DNA of 34,215 nucleotides from an uncultured archaeon (GTDB lineage: Archaea; Aenigmatarchaeota; Aenigmatarchaeia; CG10238-14; SCSR01), in contig CAZERL010000002.1 of assembly GCA_964514495.1 (NCBI GenBank), positions 1-34,215 of the forward strand, read 5' to 3'. The position numbers and the translations under genes are program-made. The notes under the pieces were generated by a model. The model searched no databases. It was not told the DNA's origin and saw nothing but the letters and a program-made list of their open reading frames with translations. Positions 1-23,272 of this stretch are shown here, one piece after another; positions within the stretch are counted from its first letter, which is position 1; each line of letters opens with the position of its first letter.

Positions 1-48
1 CCACCAACCTCCCACATTCAAAAACACCCAACAAAACCGGGTTAACGG

Positions 49-55
49 TTTATAC
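49..55 (+). promoter_or_regulatory. TATA-like box upstream of the DP1-like gene
   Basis: TTTATAC lies about 25 nt upstream of the ATG at 77. A similar TATA-to-ATG spacing recurs before several genes here, consistent with archaeal leaderless or short-leader transcripts. Confidence 0.35.
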
Positions 56-76
56 TTTGAAGAAATAATACTGCAT

Positions 77-1255
77 ATGAATTTTATAGATAAAAAACAA
101 ATCCTAACCTCATTTCTCGCAGAAGGCTACCAGCTAGACGAGTCGGCACTGGACTTTTTAACCTCCCACACAGATCAGATTGTGGATGTCTTAGAAGGCC
201 TACAAAAACTACTTAAGAAACCAGCCATTTTAACCGATAAACATATTAAAACACTTCTAAACCCCCAAACCCCGATAACACTAAAAACACCCCAGCACGT
301 CTCAAAACCCCTCACACCAAACACAATACTCAGTCTCCTAAGCAACCGCTATAATTTTTTGAAAAGCGTCCTGCAGAACAGACTTGAATTAACAAACCTG
401 ACATCAATAAATAAAATAGGCGGCTCTAAACAATTCTCATTGATAGCGCTACTCCGGGAGGTTGATTATGTTGATAAAAACATAATCGCAGAAGACAAGA
501 CCGGTTCCATAAAACTATTTTTCGATGACCAAAGCACAGCACAACATCTTGTCTCAGAAGAAACGGTCGGACTCTTATGTATGCAGGAAGAGGGCCGAAT
601 TAAAATACAGAGAGTCGTCCACCCAGACATTCCCATTAAGAGGGAGATAATACGATCAAAAACAAAGACAACGTGTGTATTCTTTCCCGCACAAACTTTA
701 AACGAATTGAGAACCCACCCAAAGCATTATGCAAAATATGAAATGTGGTGTAAAGACAACAATTCCGACAATACGGTTGTTTTTGTCTTGGGAGGTATAC
801 CAAATCCCGACGTTTTAGGCACACTACCGAAACAAAGTACAAAGATAGTGCTTGTTAATGAAACGCCCCAAGGAAGCGATGATGATTCTGAACTGATAAT
901 TATGGTAGAGCCGGCATTGGTGAAAATCGGCGGTGTGACACTATTTTTATCAACAGGCGATTTTCTCAAAGATTATATAACTGCCATGAAAACAAACGCA
1001 GAAGAGGCACTGGTCAATTTACTTAAGAAACGGCACTTGAACCCAACATTTAATATACAGCAACCAATCTATTCAAACGACCCCTATCTGCTGGATATCA
1101 TACCGGATGTGATTGTTGTCGGTTCATCAGGAACACCGCAAGCCATAAACTACAAAGGGGTAACTATAGTTACAACCGGCAGCCCCGCCTCACAACCCAT
1201 AGTTTGGAGTACCGACCTCCAGACACGAGAAACTATTAAAATTGACTTTACATAA
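77..1255 (+). CDS. DNA polymerase B-subunit / PolD small subunit (DP1)-like protein with degenerate phosphoesterase motifs
   Basis: 392-aa ORF with an N-terminal helical segment, a Pro/Thr-rich linker and an OB-fold-like block (SLIALLREVDYVDKNIIAEDKTGSIKLFFDD...RIKIQRVVHPDIP) that resembles the DP1 OB domain ending in PDxP. C-terminal LLKKRHLNPTF and PDVIVVGSSG resemble DP1 LLxxRHLAP and PDxxxxGHxH, but the His ligands are replaced. The expected DxH, GDxxDG and GNHD positions read VFFPAQT, LGGIPNP and VNETP. The stop codon is 6 nt before the polB start. Confidence 0.65.
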   Translation: MNFIDKKQILTSFLAEGYQLDESALDFLTSHTDQIVDVLEGLQKLLKKPAILTDKHIKTLLNPQTPITLKTPQHVSKPLTPNTILSLLSNRYNFLKSVLQNRLELTNLTSINKIGGSKQFSLIALLREVDYVDKNIIAEDKTGSIKLFFDDQSTAQHLVSEETVGLLCMQEEGRIKIQRVVHPDIPIKREIIRSKTKTTCVFFPAQTLNELRTHPKHYAKYEMWCKDNNSDNTVVFVLGGIPNPDVLGTLPKQSTKIVLVNETPQGSDDDSELIIMVEPALVKIGGVTLFLSTGDFLKDYITAMKTNAEEALVNLLKKRHLNPTFNIQQPIYSNDPYLLDIIPDVIVVGSSGTPQAINYKGVTIVTTGSPASQPIVWSTDLQTRETIKIDFT

Positions 1256-1261
1256 GGTAAT

Positions 1262-3949
1262 GTGATGAAGGCAAACTTCCAGTTGATTGATTGTGATTAT
1301 GTTGTAGTGGACAACACACCGATAGTTAGGGTTTTCGGTAAAACCGAAGCGGGCAAAAGCATATGCACCTTCTATGAGGGCTACAACCCATATTTCTATA
1401 TTGTTCCAAAAGACAAAGACAGCATAACAAAACATTTGAATAAAGAATTCAAGCAGCTGGTCACTGACATTGCCGAAACAGAACGACTTCTCCCAATAGG
1501 ATTTACAACAAATAAAACCAAACTACTAAAGATTACAGCAACCGACCCGTCCCAAGTGCCTTTGATTAGAGACAGTTTGCTAACCCACGGGCTAGTTAAC
1601 AATGTATACGAAGCCGACATACTTTTCAAAAACAGATTCATGGCGGATATGGGATTAAACGGTATGGACTGGTATGAGGTCACAGGAGATAGCATTGGCA
1701 CGAACACCGTAAAAACAGAAGTTTTAATCAAGGCCAAAGAATTTAAAAAAATCCACGCGAAAAAGAACATGGAATTTCAATATATGTGCATTGACATCGA
1801 GATAGGTATGGCAGTTGAAGGCATACCAAACGCAACAAAAGACCCCATATCAATGATAAGCTTGTCATTTTATCCAGAGTTCCGCGATAAAAAATCACTC
1901 GTGCTTGTATCAAAGCATGTAGAAAAAACTGGTGACGTCCTGTCATTCAAGGACGAAAAAAACATGCTAGAAGGATTCCTCAAAGTTTTGGATTCTTTCG
2001 ACCCGGATTTCATAACAGGGTATAACATAAACGGGTTTGACATGCCGTATATCCTAACTAGACTGAGCGAAAATAAATTACCAAGAGCTTTGGGCAGAGA
2101 TAAAAATAAACAGAGCATATCAAGAAAATTCGGAATAAAATCTCGGACATCCGTGGTTGGCAGGGTTGTGGTAGATGTATACGAGCTTGTTAAGGAGTCA
2201 ATAGGCAAAGGCATTCTACGATTAAAGCGATATGGTTTAGGCGATGTATCTAGAGAGCTACTTGGTATGGATAAGGTTGACATTTCTCACGGTGAAATTT
2301 CCAAACACTGGAATGGTACAAAGGAACAACTGGAAAAACTGATTAATTATGCGCGTGTCGATTCGGTTCTAGCACTAAAATTGTTGCTGGATAAAAACAT
2401 GGTTGACAAATTCATAGAATTATCCAAAGTATCGGGACTATTGCTTCAGGATGCACTGGATGGGGGAGAGGGCACTCGGGTGGAAAACATTTTGTTGCGT
2501 GAATTTAACAGGGAAGGATATGTCCTTCCAACCAAACCATCTACAAGCGAGATACTTAAACGCCGGCTGCAAAAAGAATCCAAGGGGCTCAAAGGAGCGT
2601 TGGTGCTAGACCCCAAAATAGGTCTCCAGACCAACTGTGTGGTATATCTAGATTTCAAAAGCATGTACCCCTCAATTTTCATCAGCTATAACATATGCCC
2701 GACAACATTGTGCATAGCAGATGTGGATGCTGAGACTGTAGAAACGCCGGATCACACGAAATTCGTTTCGACTAATGTAAGGGCGGGAATCATCCCCAGA
2801 ATAGTTAGGAAACTTATACAGGAAAGGGATGTTGTCAGGAGCCAAATGAAAGCCGAAAGCAACATAGCAATAAAAAGGATTTTAGATGCGAAGCAGCTAG
2901 CATTAAAATATGTAACAAACTCATTCTATGGCTATACTGGTTATGTCCTAGCCCGAGTTTACCTGCTGGAAATTGCGAATGCTATCACAAGTTGCGGTAG
3001 GTATCTGATACAAGTGACTAAAAACACGGCGGAAATGGGCAACGAGTATACTGTAATTTACGGCGATACAGATTCTATCATGGTTGATACAAAAGTTTCT
3101 GATACAGATAAGGCAATGGAAATCGGTAAAAAAATCGAGATTGAAATAAACAACAGACTGAAAGGTATTGTTGAAGTAAAGATTGAAAATATTTTCAAGT
3201 CTCTACTGATCCTCGCAAAGAAAAGGTACGCCGGTATATCAATCGAGCAGAGTAATGGAGAAGTCAAAGAATCAATTGTCATGAAAGGTATTGAAACTGT
3301 TAGGAGGGATTGGTGCGATCTTACCAGTGAAACTTTGTTCAGTGCTTTGGAAATAATCTTGAAAGAACAAAGCCCTAAGAAAGCTGTGGAGTATGTCAAA
3401 GGAATTTTGAGCAAGCTTGAAAGAAACGAGATTCCTATAGAAAAATTGGTTATAACCAAAAGCATTTCAAAGCCGCTCAGGGATTACAAAGGAGTGCAAC
3501 CTCATATCGAAGTTGTAAAAAAAATTAGAAAAAGGAACCCAACAGAAGCACCCGGCATAGGAGATAGAGTTGGGTTCGTGATAATACATGGGCCGCAGTT
3601 AATGTCCGAAAGGGCAGAAGATCCTAATTATGTGGAGCAACATGGGTTAAAGATAGATTCCAAATACTACATAGAAAGCCAAATCCTACCTCCACTCGAA
3701 CGAGTTTTTGATGCTATAGGCATCACTAAAAGTGAAGTTATCGGCATAGGAAAACAACTCATGCTATTTGACGCCTTTAAAAATAAAAACCCCAAACCAG
3801 TATCGGCTACACTACCATCTGCAGAAGGTTTTATTTGCAAAGACTGCAACCAAAGCTACAGGCGCATACCACTTATAGGAAAATGCGATTCATGTAACGG
3901 GGAAATACTATTTTACTATGCGGGTCAGAAGGGGACTTCTTTAGGATAA
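1262..3949 (+). CDS. polB: Family-B DNA polymerase (archaeal PolB) with C-terminal Cys4 extension
   Basis: Exo I FQYMCIDIE, Exo II YNINGFDMPY and Exo III YARVDSVLA are present. So are motif A LDFKSMYPSI, motif B KYVTNSFYGYTGY and motif C VIYGDTDS. All are contiguous, so there is no intein. The start is GTG 1262 or ATG 1265. There is a PIP-like QLMLFDAF at aa 832-839, then about 56 more residues including CKDC-x12-CDSC. Confidence 0.95.
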   Translation: MMKANFQLIDCDYVVVDNTPIVRVFGKTEAGKSICTFYEGYNPYFYIVPKDKDSITKHLNKEFKQLVTDIAETERLLPIGFTTNKTKLLKITATDPSQVPLIRDSLLTHGLVNNVYEADILFKNRFMADMGLNGMDWYEVTGDSIGTNTVKTEVLIKAKEFKKIHAKKNMEFQYMCIDIEIGMAVEGIPNATKDPISMISLSFYPEFRDKKSLVLVSKHVEKTGDVLSFKDEKNMLEGFLKVLDSFDPDFITGYNINGFDMPYILTRLSENKLPRALGRDKNKQSISRKFGIKSRTSVVGRVVVDVYELVKESIGKGILRLKRYGLGDVSRELLGMDKVDISHGEISKHWNGTKEQLEKLINYARVDSVLALKLLLDKNMVDKFIELSKVSGLLLQDALDGGEGTRVENILLREFNREGYVLPTKPSTSEILKRRLQKESKGLKGALVLDPKIGLQTNCVVYLDFKSMYPSIFISYNICPTTLCIADVDAETVETPDHTKFVSTNVRAGIIPRIVRKLIQERDVVRSQMKAESNIAIKRILDAKQLALKYVTNSFYGYTGYVLARVYLLEIANAITSCGRYLIQVTKNTAEMGNEYTVIYGDTDSIMVDTKVSDTDKAMEIGKKIEIEINNRLKGIVEVKIENIFKSLLILAKKRYAGISIEQSNGEVKESIVMKGIETVRRDWCDLTSETLFSALEIILKEQSPKKAVEYVKGILSKLERNEIPIEKLVITKSISKPLRDYKGVQPHIEVVKKIRKRNPTEAPGIGDRVGFVIIHGPQLMSERAEDPNYVEQHGLKIDSKYYIESQILPPLERVFDAIGITKSEVIGIGKQLMLFDAFKNKNPKPVSATLPSAEGFICKDCNQSYRRIPLIGKCDSCNGEILFYYAGQKGTSLG

Positions 3950-5605
3950 TTGTTTGACTTTTTCTAAAATCGAAGTATAAGCAGGCCTAGTTATTGAAAT
4001 TGCTATCAAAACCCCGATTATCGTAGTTATAGCGAAACCCTTTAGTGCGCCAACACCGGCAATCACCAGAGGTAGCATTGCAGCTATGACTATGGAAGCC
4101 GAGTTAAAAATAATCGCCATCGCCGCCTTATGACGCTGTCTGACAGTGGTTTCCTTTTCCTGCAACATTTGATCTGTTATGATAATCAATTGGTTAACAC
4201 CAGTCCCTATGATTGCAATTAACCCAGCTATTGCAGGCACATCCAATACCCATCCAGCGCCTTTAGTTGCTGACTGAGTAAAGGCGGCAAACCCCAGAAT
4301 TAATAAAATTTCGCTAAAGCTGATTATCAGCATCGGCACAACAATTTTAAAGTCACGGTACCTGAACAAAATCACAATGCTTACTATAATCGCCGCAGCT
4401 ATAACAACATATATTGTAGAACTTAACAAAGCCCTTCCAGCGGTTTGCGTCACTACGTCAGTCTTGATAATTTCCAATTCTACTGGCAGACTTCCTGATT
4501 TCAGGACAGACTGCAACTGCAGGCGCTCATTCAGAGCAGCCTCACGTGTTTCTCTGAATCCCTGAAGTGTAGGTTTTGTTAAAGATTGCCCAGCCAAACT
4601 GGCCACGATGTTAAGTGATGTCACCTGATCCTCATCCAAAAATAAAACAAGCACGGGGTCCAAGTACCTTTCACTCCCACCAAGTCTTATCGGCTGATTC
4701 CTAGTTAACTTTGCAAATCTCTCAGCACTTTCTTGGCTTGTTTGTATAGCAAAAGAGAACTCATACCCATTTCCCACAGGCGCAAGATAGCTATTTTGCG
4801 GATCGGTAAAAACAGCCACGATGTCTTTCCCAGTGAAAACAGTACTCAAGATTCCAATCGTTTCATTCGTCACGTTTTTTATCTCTACAGTTATACCATC
4901 CTTAGTAAAGAGTTCCCCGAACTTATGTTGCTCGTTATCGAAAATTACTCCATCTTTAGATAATCCAATAGAGATTGATTTGCCTGCGAACGTTAAACTT
5001 CCCACAGCGTCTTTTAATTTAACAGTCTGTTCCAATTTACCTTCAAATTTACCTTGACGCGATAAGAAATTGACTATTTCTTCACTTGTCGCTCCCCCCA
5101 TCTCAATTTGAATTAGATTCTCGCCTATGGTGTATATTCTCAAGTCACGTAAGCCGTACAAGTTTATTCTGGTAGTTAGTACAGAAATCGTATCGTCTAT
5201 CAGACTTTTCGTAATAGTTCTTTTCGGTTTTAACAGTACTCTGGAACCCCCCTGTATGTCTATACCAAACACTAAATTCTCTTTTTTAACACCAGCTACT
5301 GTAAATCCTATGTTTCCGTCTTCCAATGCTACGCAATTAGCTGGCAATCCATCAGCTATTAAAGAAACAAATTCATCCCCCTTTATGTTAAGTACAGACT
5401 TATGGAAGTCGTCTAAATTTTTGATTTGTGTTGCCGACACCTGCGTGATTGCAAAATCTAATCTTATATTGTTGCATTTTGCGTTGCTAGCTATTTTAGC
5501 GACAACTACACCAACCCTGCCGGATAGCAACGGCGATATGATAAAATATAATGAAACCCCAAGCAATACCGCTAGAACCAATAAACGAACATCCTTTAAT
5601 ATCAT
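3941..5605 (-). CDS. secD: Protein-export membrane protein SecD
   Basis: 554 aa with an N-terminal TM helix, a large extracytoplasmic domain and a C-terminal multi-TM block containing GLIAIIGTGVNQLIIITDQ (SecD/F-type motif). The start overlaps the secF stop by 4 nt. The 3' end overlaps the polB 3' end by 9 nt. Confidence 0.8.
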   Translation of the reverse strand: MILKDVRLLVLAVLLGVSLYFIISPLLSGRVGVVVAKIASNAKCNNIRLDFAITQVSATQIKNLDDFHKSVLNIKGDEFVSLIADGLPANCVALEDGNIGFTVAGVKKENLVFGIDIQGGSRVLLKPKRTITKSLIDDTISVLTTRINLYGLRDLRIYTIGENLIQIEMGGATSEEIVNFLSRQGKFEGKLEQTVKLKDAVGSLTFAGKSISIGLSKDGVIFDNEQHKFGELFTKDGITVEIKNVTNETIGILSTVFTGKDIVAVFTDPQNSYLAPVGNGYEFSFAIQTSQESAERFAKLTRNQPIRLGGSERYLDPVLVLFLDEDQVTSLNIVASLAGQSLTKPTLQGFRETREAALNERLQLQSVLKSGSLPVELEIIKTDVVTQTAGRALLSSTIYVVIAAAIIVSIVILFRYRDFKIVVPMLIISFSEILLILGFAAFTQSATKGAGWVLDVPAIAGLIAIIGTGVNQLIIITDQMLQEKETTVRQRHKAAMAIIFNSASIVIAAMLPLVIAGVGALKGFAITTIIGVLIAISITRPAYTSILEKVKQLS

Positions 5606-6447
5606 GTGTGGTGCCTTCTTCTAACCCACCATTCCAATAAAGAAGAATTTAGGATCCAAGTATACGGTAAATCAAAAATAAAACCTATGACAAGTATCTG
5701 CGACACATTAACCAGCAATTTAGACGGCGATAATAATAGAACAATTAACATCGTCAATGTTATGGTCGATATCAATGTCAATCCGGTTGATAAAGCTCTT
5801 CTGTATTGTTTTCTGAAATTTTCCGGAGTCGTCTTCAAAACTTGGTTCGTCAAAACGATATTTGTGTCTACAGTGTATGCAATCAGCATTAGCAAGGCAG
5901 CAAATCCCGCAAAACTTATTTTAATCCCCAATAGACTGGTTATCGCTAAAGCGGTCAAGATATTTGCCAAGCTCGCAAAAACAATACCAAAACTAGTTAT
6001 CAGGTTTCTATAGATTATAAAAATTACAATGCTCATAAGGACAAATCCAATAGAAAGAATGGATACAACTTGTTCGAAAAATAAATTTCCTAGAAATGAA
6101 CCAATGCTTTCGGACGAAAACGAATTTACAGCAACGCCTAGGTTCTTCAGGTCGCTTATCACGCCATTTACACCAACATCCTTATCAACCTGTATTTCAA
6201 TTCCATACCCTCTGATACTTTGCACGTTTGATACAAACGCCGAACCATATTTTGCAGCCAGCGCTTGTTCTATTTTAGAAGTATCAAAGGGTGCTGGTGT
6301 CGCGATGTTGATTAATGTCCCCCCTTTCAGGTCGATATCACGTAAGATGAAATCGCCGGTTCTGATAAAATTCGATAACAAAATCGCTAACGATAGTAGG
6401 AAGATCAATATAGGTAACAAAACCAACTTTGGAAAGCGCCCAGACAT
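5602..6447 (-). CDS. secF: Protein-export membrane protein SecF
   Basis: 281 aa with an N-terminal TM, a small extracytoplasmic domain and a multi-TM C-terminus containing LLMLIAYTVDTNIVLTNQV (SecF-type motif). It is translationally coupled to secD. Confidence 0.8.
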   Translation of the reverse strand: MSGRFPKLVLLPILIFLLSLAILLSNFIRTGDFILRDIDLKGGTLINIATPAPFDTSKIEQALAAKYGSAFVSNVQSIRGYGIEIQVDKDVGVNGVISDLKNLGVAVNSFSSESIGSFLGNLFFEQVVSILSIGFVLMSIVIFIIYRNLITSFGIVFASLANILTALAITSLLGIKISFAGFAALLMLIAYTVDTNIVLTNQVLKTTPENFRKQYRRALSTGLTLISTITLTMLIVLLLSPSKLLVNVSQILVIGFIFDLPYTWILNSSLLEWWVRRRHHT

Positions 6448-6463
6448 AAGAACTTTCTATAAT

Positions 6464-6853
6464 CTAGATTTTTAATACTATAAAATAAGCGCCTGCCACA
6501 ATCAGCAATATACCCATCATTTTTACCAGTGTCAAACTTTCGTTGAAAAATATCTTAGCCAATATTGCTGTAAAAACATAACCTAGTGAAATCAATGGAT
6601 ATGCGAAACTTAACTCCTCTCTTGACAACACCACCAACCAAAGTCCAGAAGCTATGAAATATAGCATAAGCCCAAAAATTACAAATTTTTCTGTTATAAC
6701 CGAAAATATCCGAGAAGTTAATAAATCATTTACGCTTAGCGTTCCGATATTTGTCATCCCGCGTTTCAGGGAGAGCTGGGCAAATACTGCTAGTACAACA
6801 CTAGCTAAAATCAACACTAGTACAGACATTTTACCAATCCTTAGGTTAGCCAT
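6464..6853 (-). CDS. Small 4-TM EamA/SMR-like membrane protein, candidate lipid-linked-sugar flippase subunit (ArnE/ArnF-like)
   Basis: 129 aa with four hydrophobic helices. Size and topology resemble single-EamA-domain ArnE/ArnF-type proteins. It sits between the RHH-nucleotidyltransferase gene and secF on the same strand. Confidence 0.5.
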   Translation of the reverse strand: MANLRIGKMSVLVLILASVVLAVFAQLSLKRGMTNIGTLSVNDLLTSRIFSVITEKFVIFGLMLYFIASGLWLVVLSREELSFAYPLISLGYVFTAILAKIFFNESLTLVKMMGILLIVAGAYFIVLKI

Positions 6854-6877
6854 AGATAGTTATTTACTAACCTCAAT

Positions 6878-7708
6878 TTATAACTTTAAAATATCGTTAA
6901 TCCTTTTAATATCGTTTGCGGTATGTACATTAACCCACTTGCCAGCTATAGGGTAACCAACTAATTTACCATCTCTTGCCAATTTCGGGAATATATGTTC
7001 CTGCAGACTCCAATACACTTCGCCTGGAGGAATATAATTTAGAATCTCACCGCTCATGAATCCTATAAATACTGAAATCAAATGTGTTTTAGGCTTTTTC
7101 GGGAATTCATCATACTCAATTACTTTGTAACCCTTTAGAACTACGACGCTTGTATTCCATTCGAAACTTGTTCTTGCGTGAATTCCAAGTGTTGCAATAC
7201 CTCCATTCATCTGATGGAAATCATATAATTCCTTTATATCAAAATCGAACCAGTGATCACATGGAAGGAAAAGAAAATCTCCCTTCAAATATTGTCTCGC
7301 CAACTCCAATGTCTTTGCGGTTCCTAATTCTTTCGTTTCTTGTATGTAATTAATTGAGACGCCAAGTTTCTCGCCATTACCAATGACTTCGTAAAGTTTT
7401 GCAATCAAAGACGGGAATCCAACAATAATAATATTTGTAAAACCAACCTCCCGCGCCTTCGAAATAATATCTTCAATTAAAGTTTTTTTGCCGATGGAAA
7501 CTAAAGGTCTATAGGTTCCAAGTTCCTTAACATAAAGCTTTGAAGGATCACCACCAGCAAGAATCACGGCAGTCCTTTTCTCAACGAGTTGTTGTGACAA
7601 TAGTTTTTCTATCGCATCGGTCCTTGACCTGATTTTAATGCCATCAACTAACGAATCCACCTTTCGTAATATTTTTTCATCCAAGCTTAGCGATACACGT
7701 TTTTTCAT
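6878..7708 (-). CDS. Ribbon-helix-helix (CopG-like) domain fused to a sugar-phosphate nucleotidyltransferase-like domain
   Basis: The N-terminus KKRVSLSLDEKILRKVDSLVDGIKIRSRTDAIEKLL fits an RHH beta-strand plus two helices. The rest matches the NTP_transferase fold (AVILAGG..., ELGTAKTLELA, FLFLPCDH, GKWVNVHTANDI). The G-loop reads GGDPSKL instead of the canonical GGxGTRL. Confidence 0.6.
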   Translation of the reverse strand: MKKRVSLSLDEKILRKVDSLVDGIKIRSRTDAIEKLLSQQLVEKRTAVILAGGDPSKLYVKELGTYRPLVSIGKKTLIEDIISKAREVGFTNIIIVGFPSLIAKLYEVIGNGEKLGVSINYIQETKELGTAKTLELARQYLKGDFLFLPCDHWFDFDIKELYDFHQMNGGIATLGIHARTSFEWNTSVVVLKGYKVIEYDEFPKKPKTHLISVFIGFMSGEILNYIPPGEVYWSLQEHIFPKLARDGKLVGYPIAGKWVNVHTANDIKRINDILKL

Positions 7709-21304: not shown

Positions 21305-23272
21305 TTATCCGCTGTAAATCAATTCAAGCATGATGTCACCGTTCTCGTCCGATGCAAGCTCTATCATCCCAAAGTCATTCCTGCCGGTTTCAACTTTTCT
21401 TCCATTTAAATATGCTTTCCAATATGGATGGTAGGTTATCTTAACAGTAATGAGCGAGTTTTTATCTGTAATATGGAACGAAAATTTCTTGTGTTCTATC
21501 TCAGTCTTGATTACCTTGGAATTTGCATCTTGTCCATTGATTCTGATCCAGGTTGGTGAGTAGTTTTCTAATGAAAATATAGAGAAGCTACCATATGTTA
21601 CGTTTTTCCTAAAAGATTCCGAACTGGCCAATTTGTCGTCTAGGTGCTTTTCTGAAGTTACAAAATACATCGCGTTATATGTTTTAAGTGCTTCAACGAT
21701 TTCTGAGGTTTCGATATTTTGGACAGTGGATTCAAGAAGCTGGCCGCCCCCGGAATATATTTTTTTAGATATTGTAGGGAAGCCACCTTGCCAAGTGCCC
21801 ACAGATTCTATTTTGGTGTTATGGGTCGACAATGCAAACATATGAGAGTTCCGCAGATTTACATCCTCAGAATTGCCATATGTATTTTGGTAGAATACTC
21901 TGGTCTCATCGGGGGATACGTTTTCCTTCAGCCATAACCAGATTTTGTTCAAATTCTCCAATTCTTCGACATCTTTGGAAGTTTTGGTGCTTAGCAATTC
22001 TTGGATCTGCGTAAACGACAGCAGAAGGATTACATATACAATCAGATAGAAAAACGGAAAGTTGCCTTTACGAGTCTTTCTATCAAAATTTGACAAAATC
22101 GAGTTATTGGCTAGCATTGAAAGCCCATGCGCTGCAAAAAACACCATGATTATCCGCGCATAAACAAAATATCTTGGGAATTGGAACAAGCCGCTCACAA
22201 GTGGCAAATAATTTTCTAATAAAGGCTTCAAGATGCCGCTCGCAATAACTACAGTCAGAACCAAAGCGGCAAGATATACAGTCAGCTCAAAATTTCTCCC
22301 ACTGCTTTTCAGGTAAGCTACCAGACCTGCGATTGCAAGTATGCTGAAGATGAGTTCTGCAATATTTAGAATGCTGAGGGTTGCTAAATTGCCCATGTTA
22401 GCGATTACATTTTCGAATCTGATTTCTCCTTTTTCCCAGCCGACTTTAGTCTTTATACTCTCGGCACGCAAATGGGGCAAGAACAAATAACCCATGCTTT
22501 TGAATGTTAATGTAGATAACCTTTCTGATTCTACAGATTTGTAGGTCTGCAGCAAGCTACCCGAGTCAAGTAAGAGTTTCCATGGCATGAGCATAAAGCC
22601 TATCAACCAACTAATTAATAGAAGCAACAATAACTTCCTGATTTTACCTTTAAACATTATTTTCTTGATGAACAGAAAAATTAGAGTAAAGTACGCAAGA
22701 AATATTATTGTGAATGGATGTGAAAGGAAAGATAGGGAAATTAAAATACCAAGCAATATGTATTGAACTAATTCCAACTTTAGCCCCTGTTTTGTTATCA
22801 GATAAATATAAATCAAGCCAAAGACTAAGCCGAGATATTGACCCCACAAGCCATTTAGGATAAAAGACAGGAAATCGAACTGGAAAAGGATCAAGACTGA
22901 TATAATTAAAGCAACACTTCTGCCAAAGGTATTTTTTAGAATTAGGTAAACCAAGACTATTGGAATCAAGTAAGAAAAATAGACCAACAACTTATAGGAT
23001 GTTGCGACATCTGACCCTAAAATGTAATGGATAAATGACACTATCCAATACCCCAATGGATAATTGTAAGCAAATATAGGAAATCCAGCAGATTCTATAT
23101 TTGACCAACCGAATAATTTCCCTTTCGGTGTCAGTTCTTCAATCAAGTAATAAGATTCGGCCAAATGCGGCGGATTATCTTGCGCAATCAGATAACCATC
23201 TTTAAAAATAGGACTTATTAGCAACAAACTTGTGATTACTATTACCGCAATACTTGCAATGTCTTTTTTCAT
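21305..23272 (-). CDS. YfhO-like / GT-C-type polytopic membrane protein
   Basis: 655 aa with many TM helices in the N-terminal roughly 420 aa. The first loop is AQDNPPHLAESYY. A soluble C-terminal domain ends in KITYHPYWKAYLNGRKVE, echoing the C-terminus of the 740-aa protein. Confidence 0.5.
   Translation of the reverse strand: MKKDIASIAVIVITSLLLISPIFKDGYLIAQDNPPHLAESYYLIEELTPKGKLFGWSNIESAGFPIFAYNYPLGYWIVSFIHYILGSDVATSYKLLVYFSYLIPIVLVYLILKNTFGRSVALIISVLILFQFDFLSFILNGLWGQYLGLVFGLIYIYLITKQGLKLELVQYILLGILISLSFLSHPFTIIFLAYFTLIFLFIKKIMFKGKIRKLLLLLLISWLIGFMLMPWKLLLDSGSLLQTYKSVESERLSTLTFKSMGYLFLPHLRAESIKTKVGWEKGEIRFENVIANMGNLATLSILNIAELIFSILAIAGLVAYLKSSGRNFELTVYLAALVLTVVIASGILKPLLENYLPLVSGLFQFPRYFVYARIIMVFFAAHGLSMLANNSILSNFDRKTRKGNFPFFYLIVYVILLLSFTQIQELLSTKTSKDVEELENLNKIWLWLKENVSPDETRVFYQNTYGNSEDVNLRNSHMFALSTHNTKIESVGTWQGGFPTISKKIYSGGGQLLESTVQNIETSEIVEALKTYNAMYFVTSEKHLDDKLASSESFRKNVTYGSFSIFSLENYSPTWIRINGQDANSKVIKTEIEHKKFSFHITDKNSLITVKITYHPYWKAYLNGRKVETGRNDFGMIELASDENGDIMLELIYSG

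Follow-up and report, generated by a model that had tools for sequence, protein, structure and literature searches.

The stretch of DNA analysed here, referred to as the window, comprises 34,215 nucleotides of contig CAZERL010000002.1 (GenBank assembly GCA_964514495.1), assembled from an uncultured archaeon. It very probably carries the locus for the replicative polymerase of an archaeon of Aenigmatarchaeota type (DPANN), encoding a heterodimeric replicase made of a family-B DNA polymerase (PolB) and a shortened, catalytically dead homologue of DP1, the small subunit of archaeal family-D polymerase (PolD). This homologue is hereafter called mini-DP1. A preliminary description of the same DNA had proposed a two-subunit archaeal family-B polymerase of eukaryote-like architecture, and the proposal is supported by homology, by the pairing of the two genes in 29/29 related loci, and by a docking zinc finger on PolB of the type found in DP2, the catalytic subunit of PolD. 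The arrangement of a dead DP1 with a PolB is already known; it was described in 2020 (PMC7544198) and the contact between the subunits was shown in 2025 (PMC12680538). The features that make up the locus are as follows.

77..1255, forward strand: mini-DP1, a B-subunit-like protein of 392 amino acids, assigned from profile, PDB and AlphaFold2 (AF2)/Foldseek matches and from alignments; N-terminal three-helix domain at about residues 4-43, OB fold at about 81-186, degenerate phosphoesterase fold at about 196-392
1019..1171, forward strand: block of highest conservation within the dead phosphoesterase domain, LLKKRHLNPTF ... PDVIVVG ... NYKGVTIV
1265..3949, forward strand: family-B DNA polymerase of 894 amino acids (PF00136, E=4.9e-114; PF03104, E=2.6e-37), with an alternative GTG start at 1262 (895 amino acids)
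3755..3778, forward strand: QLMLFDAF, similar to a PCNA-interacting-peptide (PIP) box, PolB residues 831-838, ahead of a linker and the zinc finger
3836..3895, forward strand: single C4 zinc finger, C858-x2-C861-x12-C874-x2-C877, homologous to zinc finger III (Zn-III) of DP2

Mini-DP1 is a constrained DP1 homologue

Mini-DP1 was matched by Pfam PF04042 (DNA_pol_E_B) with E=2.3e-7 and 30.9 bits, barely above the gathering score of 29.1, and by five NCBIfam "DNA polymerase II small subunit" models, the best with E=3.4e-28. All five scores lie far under the equivalog cut-offs, so the protein is no orthodox DP1 but a divergent relative. Comparison with the PDB using phmmer returned the DP1 chains of Pyrococcus abyssi and Thermococcus kodakarensis (E=1e-11). 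An AF2 model built from 18 sequences, with a predicted local distance difference test score (pLDDT) of 86 and a predicted template modelling score (pTM) of 0.81, shows an OB fold followed by a calcineurin-like phosphoesterase fold. The best Foldseek match of this model was P. abyssi DP1 (6t8h_A, E=6.7e-23, template modelling score 0.66), followed by the human Pol delta subunit p50 (6tny_B, E=4.7e-20) and then by POLE2 and POLA2; the top 50 matches were exclusively DP1 or eukaryotic B-subunits. The homology to DP1 and B-subunits put forward in the preliminary description is borne out by these significant profile and structure matches, and all of the peptides that it quoted were located: HPDIP (residues 182-186), VFFPAQT (201-207), LGGIPNP (238-244), VNETP (260-264), LLKKRHLNPTF (315-325), PDVIVVG (343-349), GSSG (349-352) and YKGVTIV (359-365).

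The closest sequences to mini-DP1 are a 99% identical protein from a JGI metagenome and an 85% identical protein from a metagenome-assembled genome (MAG) at NCBI. Measured against the 85% identical relative (L001 in our set of loci), the ratio of non-synonymous to synonymous substitution rates (dN/dS) was 0.24 for the whole gene and 0.21-0.27 for the individual domains, all three of which are constrained; the adjacent PolB gene gave 0.09 in the same comparison. The mini-DP1 gene is under purifying selection and is not a pseudogene. Invariant or near-invariant columns in the most conserved block comprise K318, R319, H320, L321, N322, P323, D340, P343, D344, Y359, K360 and G361. By homology, and following statements in PMC7544198, this block would belong to the domain that docks the C-terminal domain (CTD) of the catalytic subunit.

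The phosphoesterase active site is lost

In P. abyssi DP1 the metal (Fe/Zn) ligands are D363, H365, D407, N453, H500, H563 and H565, with the conserved motif-III histidine, the counterpart of Mre11 H85, serving as proton donor (PMC4996933). Based upon alignments with canonical DPANN DP1s, mini-DP1 has A, T, G, E, T, S and G at the seven ligand columns (0/7 kept) and T at the proton-donor column. Motifs IV and V could be aligned directly to P. abyssi DP1 with phmmer, where H is replaced by T and GHVH by GSSG. The second half of motif II is gone through a 19-residue deletion common to all members of the family. The replacement of every metal ligand, as read in the preliminary description, is thus upheld, and the proton-donor histidine is gone as well. 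The possibility that ligands are present at shifted positions was examined and rejected: none was found in the alignments, none of the eight histidines (31, 56, 74, 157, 182, 214, 217, 320) is at a motif position, and in the AF2 model none lies at the strand ends that bear motifs I-V. A protein without any metal ligand or catalytic histidine cannot be a proofreading nuclease, and mini-DP1, judged by its sequence, is not an active PolD DP1.

The partner polymerase carries a DP2-type zinc finger

The Exo I-III and Pol A/B/C motifs of PolB are intact (IDIE at residue 176, NINGFDMPY at 254, YARVD at 362, DFKSMYPS at 463, KYVTNSFYG at 548 and YGDTDS at 599), and PolB therefore supplies its own proofreading. 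Thermococcales PolB and human Pol delta were tied as best PDB matches, each with E of about 2e-102, and named Aenigmatarchaeota MAGs encode PolBs of the same architecture that share 44-95% identity with it. Translation more likely starts at ATG 1265, as called in L041 and L042 and as aligned in relatives. The tight same-strand pairing with mini-DP1 noted earlier stands, while the reported gap of 6 nt is valid only for the GTG at 1262; ATG 1265 gives 9 nt.

The zinc finger lies within the last 40 residues of PolB, with only 17 residues after it, and accounts for four of the 12 cysteines of the protein. It was matched by NCBIfam DP2 models at their C-terminal positions (E=2.5e-5 and 3.4e-5) and, in phmmer searches of the PDB, by T. 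kodakarensis DP2 (6knb_B residues 1127-1156, E=4.5e-4) and P. abyssi DP2 (6hms_B residues 1119-1148), with identity to DP2 Zn-III of roughly 50-60% across 30 aligned residues, judged by eye. When a Pacearchaeota DP2 was searched against the 34-kb window with tblastn, only positions 3818-3913 were matched, corresponding to the 32-residue zinc finger at 53% identity. Nine DP2 C-termini, some from DPANN and some from other archaea, align with the finger, and this alignment also shows that the DP2 helices C-terminal to Zn-III are absent from PolB. Upstream of the finger, alignments with Thermococcales PolBs end at query residue 824 with about 20 target residues remaining, and a GKQxxLxxxx pattern is conserved in relatives at the site of QLMLFDAF. 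By analogy with archaeal PolB C-termini, we take QLMLFDAF to be PIP-like and to lie where canonical archaeal PolBs end. A PIP-like motif at the usual end of PolB, before a linker and a DP2-type finger, is consistent with a complete PolB fused to the finger.

The gene pair is conserved

Among 5.8 billion proteins searched, only about 14 clusters belonged to the mini-DP1 family, whose members are about 390 amino acids long; the other matches were distant canonical DP1s. A scan of GTDB genomes yielded 29 mini-DP1 loci and 11 canonical DP1 loci, the latter from Pace-, Woese-, Nano- and Undinarchaeota and Thermococci. Candidatus Aenigmatarchaeota is the label of many of the mini-DP1 loci; the others are marked "uncultured archaeon", the only label carried by the two closest relatives of the window locus, apart from one "uncultured bacterium", presumably a case of mis-binning. 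PolB is next to mini-DP1 on the same strand in 29/29 loci, all from Aenigmatarchaeota-type MAGs; this answers in the affirmative the check on gene-pair conservation suggested by the preliminary description. In the 24 loci measured, PolB starts 1-42 nt past the stop of the DP1-like gene, with a median gap of 9 nt. The zinc-finger CTD was matched in 23/29 loci; in the other six the PolB match ends short of the C-terminus.

Two observations concern individual loci of this set. One MAG (JZ-1_201709_bins_39) contains two different DP1-like-PolB pairs, L012 (JAWBTN010000023) and L021 (JAWBTN010000025), one with the upstream WH85 gene described below and one without it, reflecting either a real duplication or a mixed bin. 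In L026 (7171-10404) and L027 (2699-6616) the PolB match is broken by about 1.1-1.3 kb near motif C, at query residues ~600-620 and ~557-597, respectively; the interruption is probably an intein.

Proposed mechanism and origin

Read from its motifs, PolB would both polymerise and perform 3'-5' proofreading. Homology and published yeast two-hybrid results suggest that the dead phosphoesterase domain of mini-DP1 is the docking site for the DP2-derived zinc finger of PolB. The product would be a heterodimer of PolB and a B-subunit, on the plan of eukaryotic Pol delta, alpha and epsilon. Mini-DP1 may then act as a scaffold or adaptor between the polymerase and other replisome components, plausibly by way of the N-terminal domain that it has kept from DP1; in Thermococcus, the DP1 N-terminal domain binds Gins51C (PMC9023282).

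The locus may have originated from an ancestral DP1-DP2 operon in which the catalytic core of DP2 was swapped in place for PolB while the zinc finger of DP2 was retained. The zinc finger of the window matches, in the canonical loci, the 3' end of a 1150-1335-aa DP2 gene downstream of DP1, and canonical DPANN PolD loci carry Orc1/Cdc6, DP1 and DP2 in that order on one strand (L030:805-7661, L031:4418-10612, L032:2292-8549). In Aenigmatarchaeota loci, WH85 takes the slot ahead of DP1 that is held by Orc1/Cdc6 in the canonical loci. The order of a small subunit followed by a catalytic subunit ending in Zn-III is shared by both, which fits PolB replacing the DP2 core in a resident operon.

The strongest of the alternatives, an unlikely one in our estimation, is that the PolB and dead-DP1 module was imported whole by a mobile element or virus. 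A mobile-element source for B6 PolB was suggested by Kazlauskas et al. (PMC7544198), and transposon-type genes (OrfB_IS605, Cas12f1-like TnpB) flank one of the loci. Against import stand the gene order and homologous 3'-end zinc finger shared with canonical DPANN PolD operons, the absence of a GC anomaly at the mini-DP1-PolB locus, and a chromosomal neighbourhood that is conserved across the phylum, with Hjc, a metallophosphoesterase and a winged-helix gene upstream and SecDF or PAP2 downstream.

It is very improbable that mini-DP1 partners elsewhere, with a DP2 encoded at another site or with GINS/CMG alone, and that its adjacency to PolB reflects co-regulation only. Such a partner could lie in the genome beyond the 34-kb window, and the retained DP1 N-terminal domain could work independently; the sole DP2-like sequence in the window is nevertheless the PolB zinc finger, and the finger accompanies the DP1-like gene in every locus whose contig extends to the end of PolB (23/29, the remaining six ending early). 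Aenigmatarchaeota have moreover been reported to lack DP2 yet retain DP1, which binds PolB-DP2CTD and not other PolBs (PMC12680538).

Several points weigh against the heterodimeric replicase or its in-place origin. The published yeast two-hybrid interaction concerns other Aenigmatarchaeota proteins and not this pair. Insofar as the CTD of this PolB is degenerate, with a finger that lacks the following DP2 helices, the interface may differ from that of PolD. The negative search for a second, canonical DP1 or DP2 covers the 34-kb window only. As to the origin, Kazlauskas et al. favoured acquisition of PolB from a mobile element over a purely in-place event (PMC7544198).

Graded decay of the active site

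The lost site of the window protein represents one end of a range. One mini-DP1 clade (L004, L005, L007 and L009-L011; P0010-P0013), with DP1-like genes at about 6001-7180 of these loci, keeps D, H, D, H, H and H at 6/7 ligand columns and still matches Pfam Metallophos, lacking the motif-III Asn and His. Some other mini-DP1s keep only the DxH motif, and most, the window protein included, keep nothing. The motif-III histidine is absent from every member of the family. A rough neighbour-joining tree suggests several independent ligand losses, and the decay, which is graded, looks stepwise and repeated. This stepwise loss may have come after PolB took over proofreading.

Two further explanations are hardly credible in the face of these data. 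Mini-DP1 might be a decaying, functionless relic of DP1 kept only by its position beside polB, as its loss of all catalytic residues, its length (about 130-230 aa shorter than canonical DP1) and the divergence of the family (24-45% identity vs 44-69% for PolB across most loci) would allow, but the open reading frame (ORF) is undamaged wherever a locus offers enough sequence, 44 columns are invariant in the family, all three domains are constrained at a dN/dS of 0.24, the AF2 model is confident (pLDDT 86) and a yeast two-hybrid interaction has been reported for the clade (PMC12680538). That mini-DP1 is still a nuclease or phosphoesterase acting through non-canonical residues, giving an enzyme with two proofreaders, is just as implausible: the six-ligand clade and its Metallophos match speak for it, but the window protein has 0/7 ligands, the second half of motif II is missing throughout the family, and no member has the motif-III histidine that is essential in DP1 and Mre11. 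Import, a different partner, relic and residual nuclease are each less likely than a heterodimeric replicase of PolB and mini-DP1.

Relation to described polymerases

Kazlauskas et al. (2020) defined the PolB group B6, including a B6-aenigma1 PolB with a DP2-ZfIII-like CTD, found most Aenigmarchaeota to lack DP2, and defined an inactive DP1 group, "Aenigma_GB_GCA_002789635-like", whose inactivation was proposed to be afforded by a proofreading PolB (PMC7544198). A 2025 study in Nature Ecology & Evolution then reported, by AlphaFold3 and yeast two-hybrid, that Aenigmatarchaeota DP1 binds PolB-DP2CTD (PMC12680538). The window locus resembles the B6-aenigma1 system in its inactivated DP1 homologue, its Aenigmatarchaeota MAG relatives, its proposed PolB and B-subunit complex in place of PolD, and its PolB, whose C-terminus bears one C4 motif with DP2 Zn-III as its closest counterpart (a single CxxC-x12-CxxC at residues 858-877); nothing essential differs. 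The inactive DP1 and the B6-aenigma1 PolB are already published, and the locus adds one more member to a described system. Term searches of PMC7544198 and PMC12680538 retrieve no mention of the tight operon, of an upstream WH85 gene or of graded ligand retention within the family.

With archaeal PolD the locus shares the domain order of the small subunit (N-terminal helical, OB, phosphoesterase), the zinc finger at the C-terminus of the catalytic subunit and the upstream position of the small-subunit gene. It differs in that the catalytic core is a family-B polymerase and not a double-psi beta-barrel DP2, that DP1 is exonuclease-dead and shorter by the margin given above, and that the DP2 helices after Zn-III are absent; the gene downstream of mini-DP1 is PolB, where an active PolD DP1 is followed by DP2. 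Eukaryotic Pol delta, alpha, epsilon and zeta with their B-subunits (p50/POLD2, POLA2, POLE2) likewise combine a family-B catalytic subunit with a Cys-rich C-terminus that binds an inactivated B-subunit of DP1 fold. The eukaryotic CTD carries CysA and CysB on a helical bundle, whereas the window PolB has a single metal-binding motif that resembles CysB and stems from DP2 ZfIII, with no CysA and no three-helix bundle; no further subunits are known for the archaeal pair, and identity to eukaryotic B-subunits is only 10-15%. By analogy, the pair would work like the eukaryotic design without having the eukaryotic CTD architecture. The Baldrarchaeia are the other archaeal lineage reported to lack DP2 and to retain a DP1 that binds a PolB with a DP2-derived CTD. 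Their PolB3 differs in bearing a full-length DP2 CTD (formerly "B6-aenigma2", with two motifs), while the Aenigmatarchaeota CTD was called degenerate (PMC12680538).

The arrangement may be regarded as a living archaeal example of a proposed step toward the eukaryotic replicative polymerases, in which a family-B subunit takes over the docking zinc finger of DP2 together with DP1, after which DP1, stripped of its nuclease activity, serves as a scaffold. Its evolutionary significance has already been recognised in the literature. The window adds a clean, complete member with chromosomal context. Further additions made here are synteny evidence for an in-place swap of DP2 to PolB (Orc1/Cdc6-DP1-DP2 vs WH85-DP1-PolB), a view of how active-site decay is graded across the family, and WH85 as a candidate extra partner.

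A winged-helix gene precedes the pair

The first positions of the window contain the end of a gene for a conserved winged-helix protein of 85 amino acids, here termed WH85, and a TATA-like sequence within it.

3..68, forward strand: 3' end of WH85, last 21 codons and stop, with the translation TNLPHSKTPNKTGLTVYTLKK followed by the stop, the C-terminus of P0022; the gene starts outside the window
49..55, forward strand: TATA-like TTTATAC, formed by the WH85 codons V-Y-T

The WH85 stop codon (66-68) is 8 nt ahead of the mini-DP1 ATG. Full-length WH85 genes are found at L041:170-427 and L001:183-440, and positions 360-440 of L041 are identical to positions 1-80 of the window. The single TATA-like box that had been taken for the promoter of the gene pair therefore sits in the coding 3' end of WH85 and is poor evidence for such a promoter; an internal promoter at TTTATAC may nonetheless exist. 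No other point of the preliminary description was left without support. A 22-nt element, GTTTATAYWTTRAARARATAAT, is conserved ahead of mini-DP1, with a single copy in the window, where 0.04 would be expected, and a single copy in each of 11 loci. It was considered as an operon-specific promoter or operator and ruled out, being the WH85 coding 3' end with its stop codon. The DNA at this element and at TTTATAC is conserved because the conserved peptide GLTVY(T/I)LK(K/R), followed by the stop, is encoded there.

WH85 precedes mini-DP1 in 25/29 loci, with gaps of 0-39 nt (median 8), and a reverse look-up from WH85 homologues recovered WH85, the DP1-like gene and PolB in order in 3/3 long contigs. 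BRE/TATA-like sequences, GAAA..TT(T/C)ATAAA, occur 25-45 nt upstream of WH85 in most loci. WH85, the DP1-like gene and PolB may thus share one transcript, started from a promoter that lies ahead of WH85 and beyond the window. Counting against such a transcript as a general rule, a minus-strand gene lies between WH85 and the DP1-like gene in L043, and WH85 is not directly upstream of the DP1-like gene in L012-L014 and L029; the three-gene unit is therefore not universal.

The WH85 family comprises at least 110 clusters, all of about 85 amino acids and 46-100% identical to the query, and the informative source names are Aenigm(at)archaeota hypothetical proteins only. Invariant features are an N-terminal MKRGRP, an SWNTxQKY helix and an LPHSK...GLTVYxLKK wing. 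The AF2 model of WH85 is a generic winged helix-turn-helix (wHTH), with PadR-, Fur- and Hop2-type proteins as top Foldseek matches (best E=4.3e-4); the N-terminal winged helix of Pol32/p66 and the winged helices of Rpa2 and Cdc6 are not among its top 50 matches. The Rpa2 winged helix binds the Accessory-1 domain of DP2, a domain that is absent from this PolB. Descent of WH85 from the C-terminal winged helix of Orc1/Cdc6 was also considered and found no support (hhalign probability 0.1%, no Pfam Cdc6_C match).

WH85 could be either an operon regulator or a polymerase accessory factor. A tentative and rather doubtful suggestion is that it is an unrecognised third component of the Aenigmatarchaeota PolB/B-subunit replicase, an accessory that binds DNA or the B-subunit and is not an ordinary transcription factor. 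It would then be loosely analogous to the N-terminal winged helix of Pol32/p66 on p50. In PMC7544198 and PMC12680538, operon and gene-neighbourhood terms retrieve no description of the genes adjoining this polymerase locus.

Neighbourhood and remainder of the window

The order conserved upstream in relatives is a Toprim-domain protein, CBS proteins and the Hjc resolvase (these on the minus strand), a metallophosphoesterase of about 225 amino acids, a protein of about 127 amino acids and WH85-DP1-PolB, with a TrmB-like protein sometimes present between the ~127-aa protein and WH85 (L010:4343-5496; L043:289-5792; L044:2196-3697; L045:974-5927). The metallophosphoesterase has intact DxH/GD/GN/H/HxH-type motifs and is 50-89% identical across loci. 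The ~127-aa protein is without an assigned family and looks like another wHTH. No tRNAs were found in the window, the rest of which is occupied by the following features.

3941-6447, reverse strand: SecD and SecF genes, converging on polB; the last 9 nt of the SecD ORF (3941-3949) overlap the polB stop
6878-34167: cell-surface glycosylation cluster, forming the remainder of the window
21305-23272, reverse strand: 655-aa ORF inside the glycosylation cluster, without a Pfam match at E<=0.01

The glycosylation cluster encodes sugar nucleotidyltransferases, UDP-glucose dehydrogenases, epimerases/dehydratases, RmlD, GT2 and GT4 glycosyltransferases, PMT_2 and YfhO-like membrane proteins, a C-methyltransferase and a DegT aminotransferase. 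GC content falls to about 0.31-0.34 at 12-18 kb.

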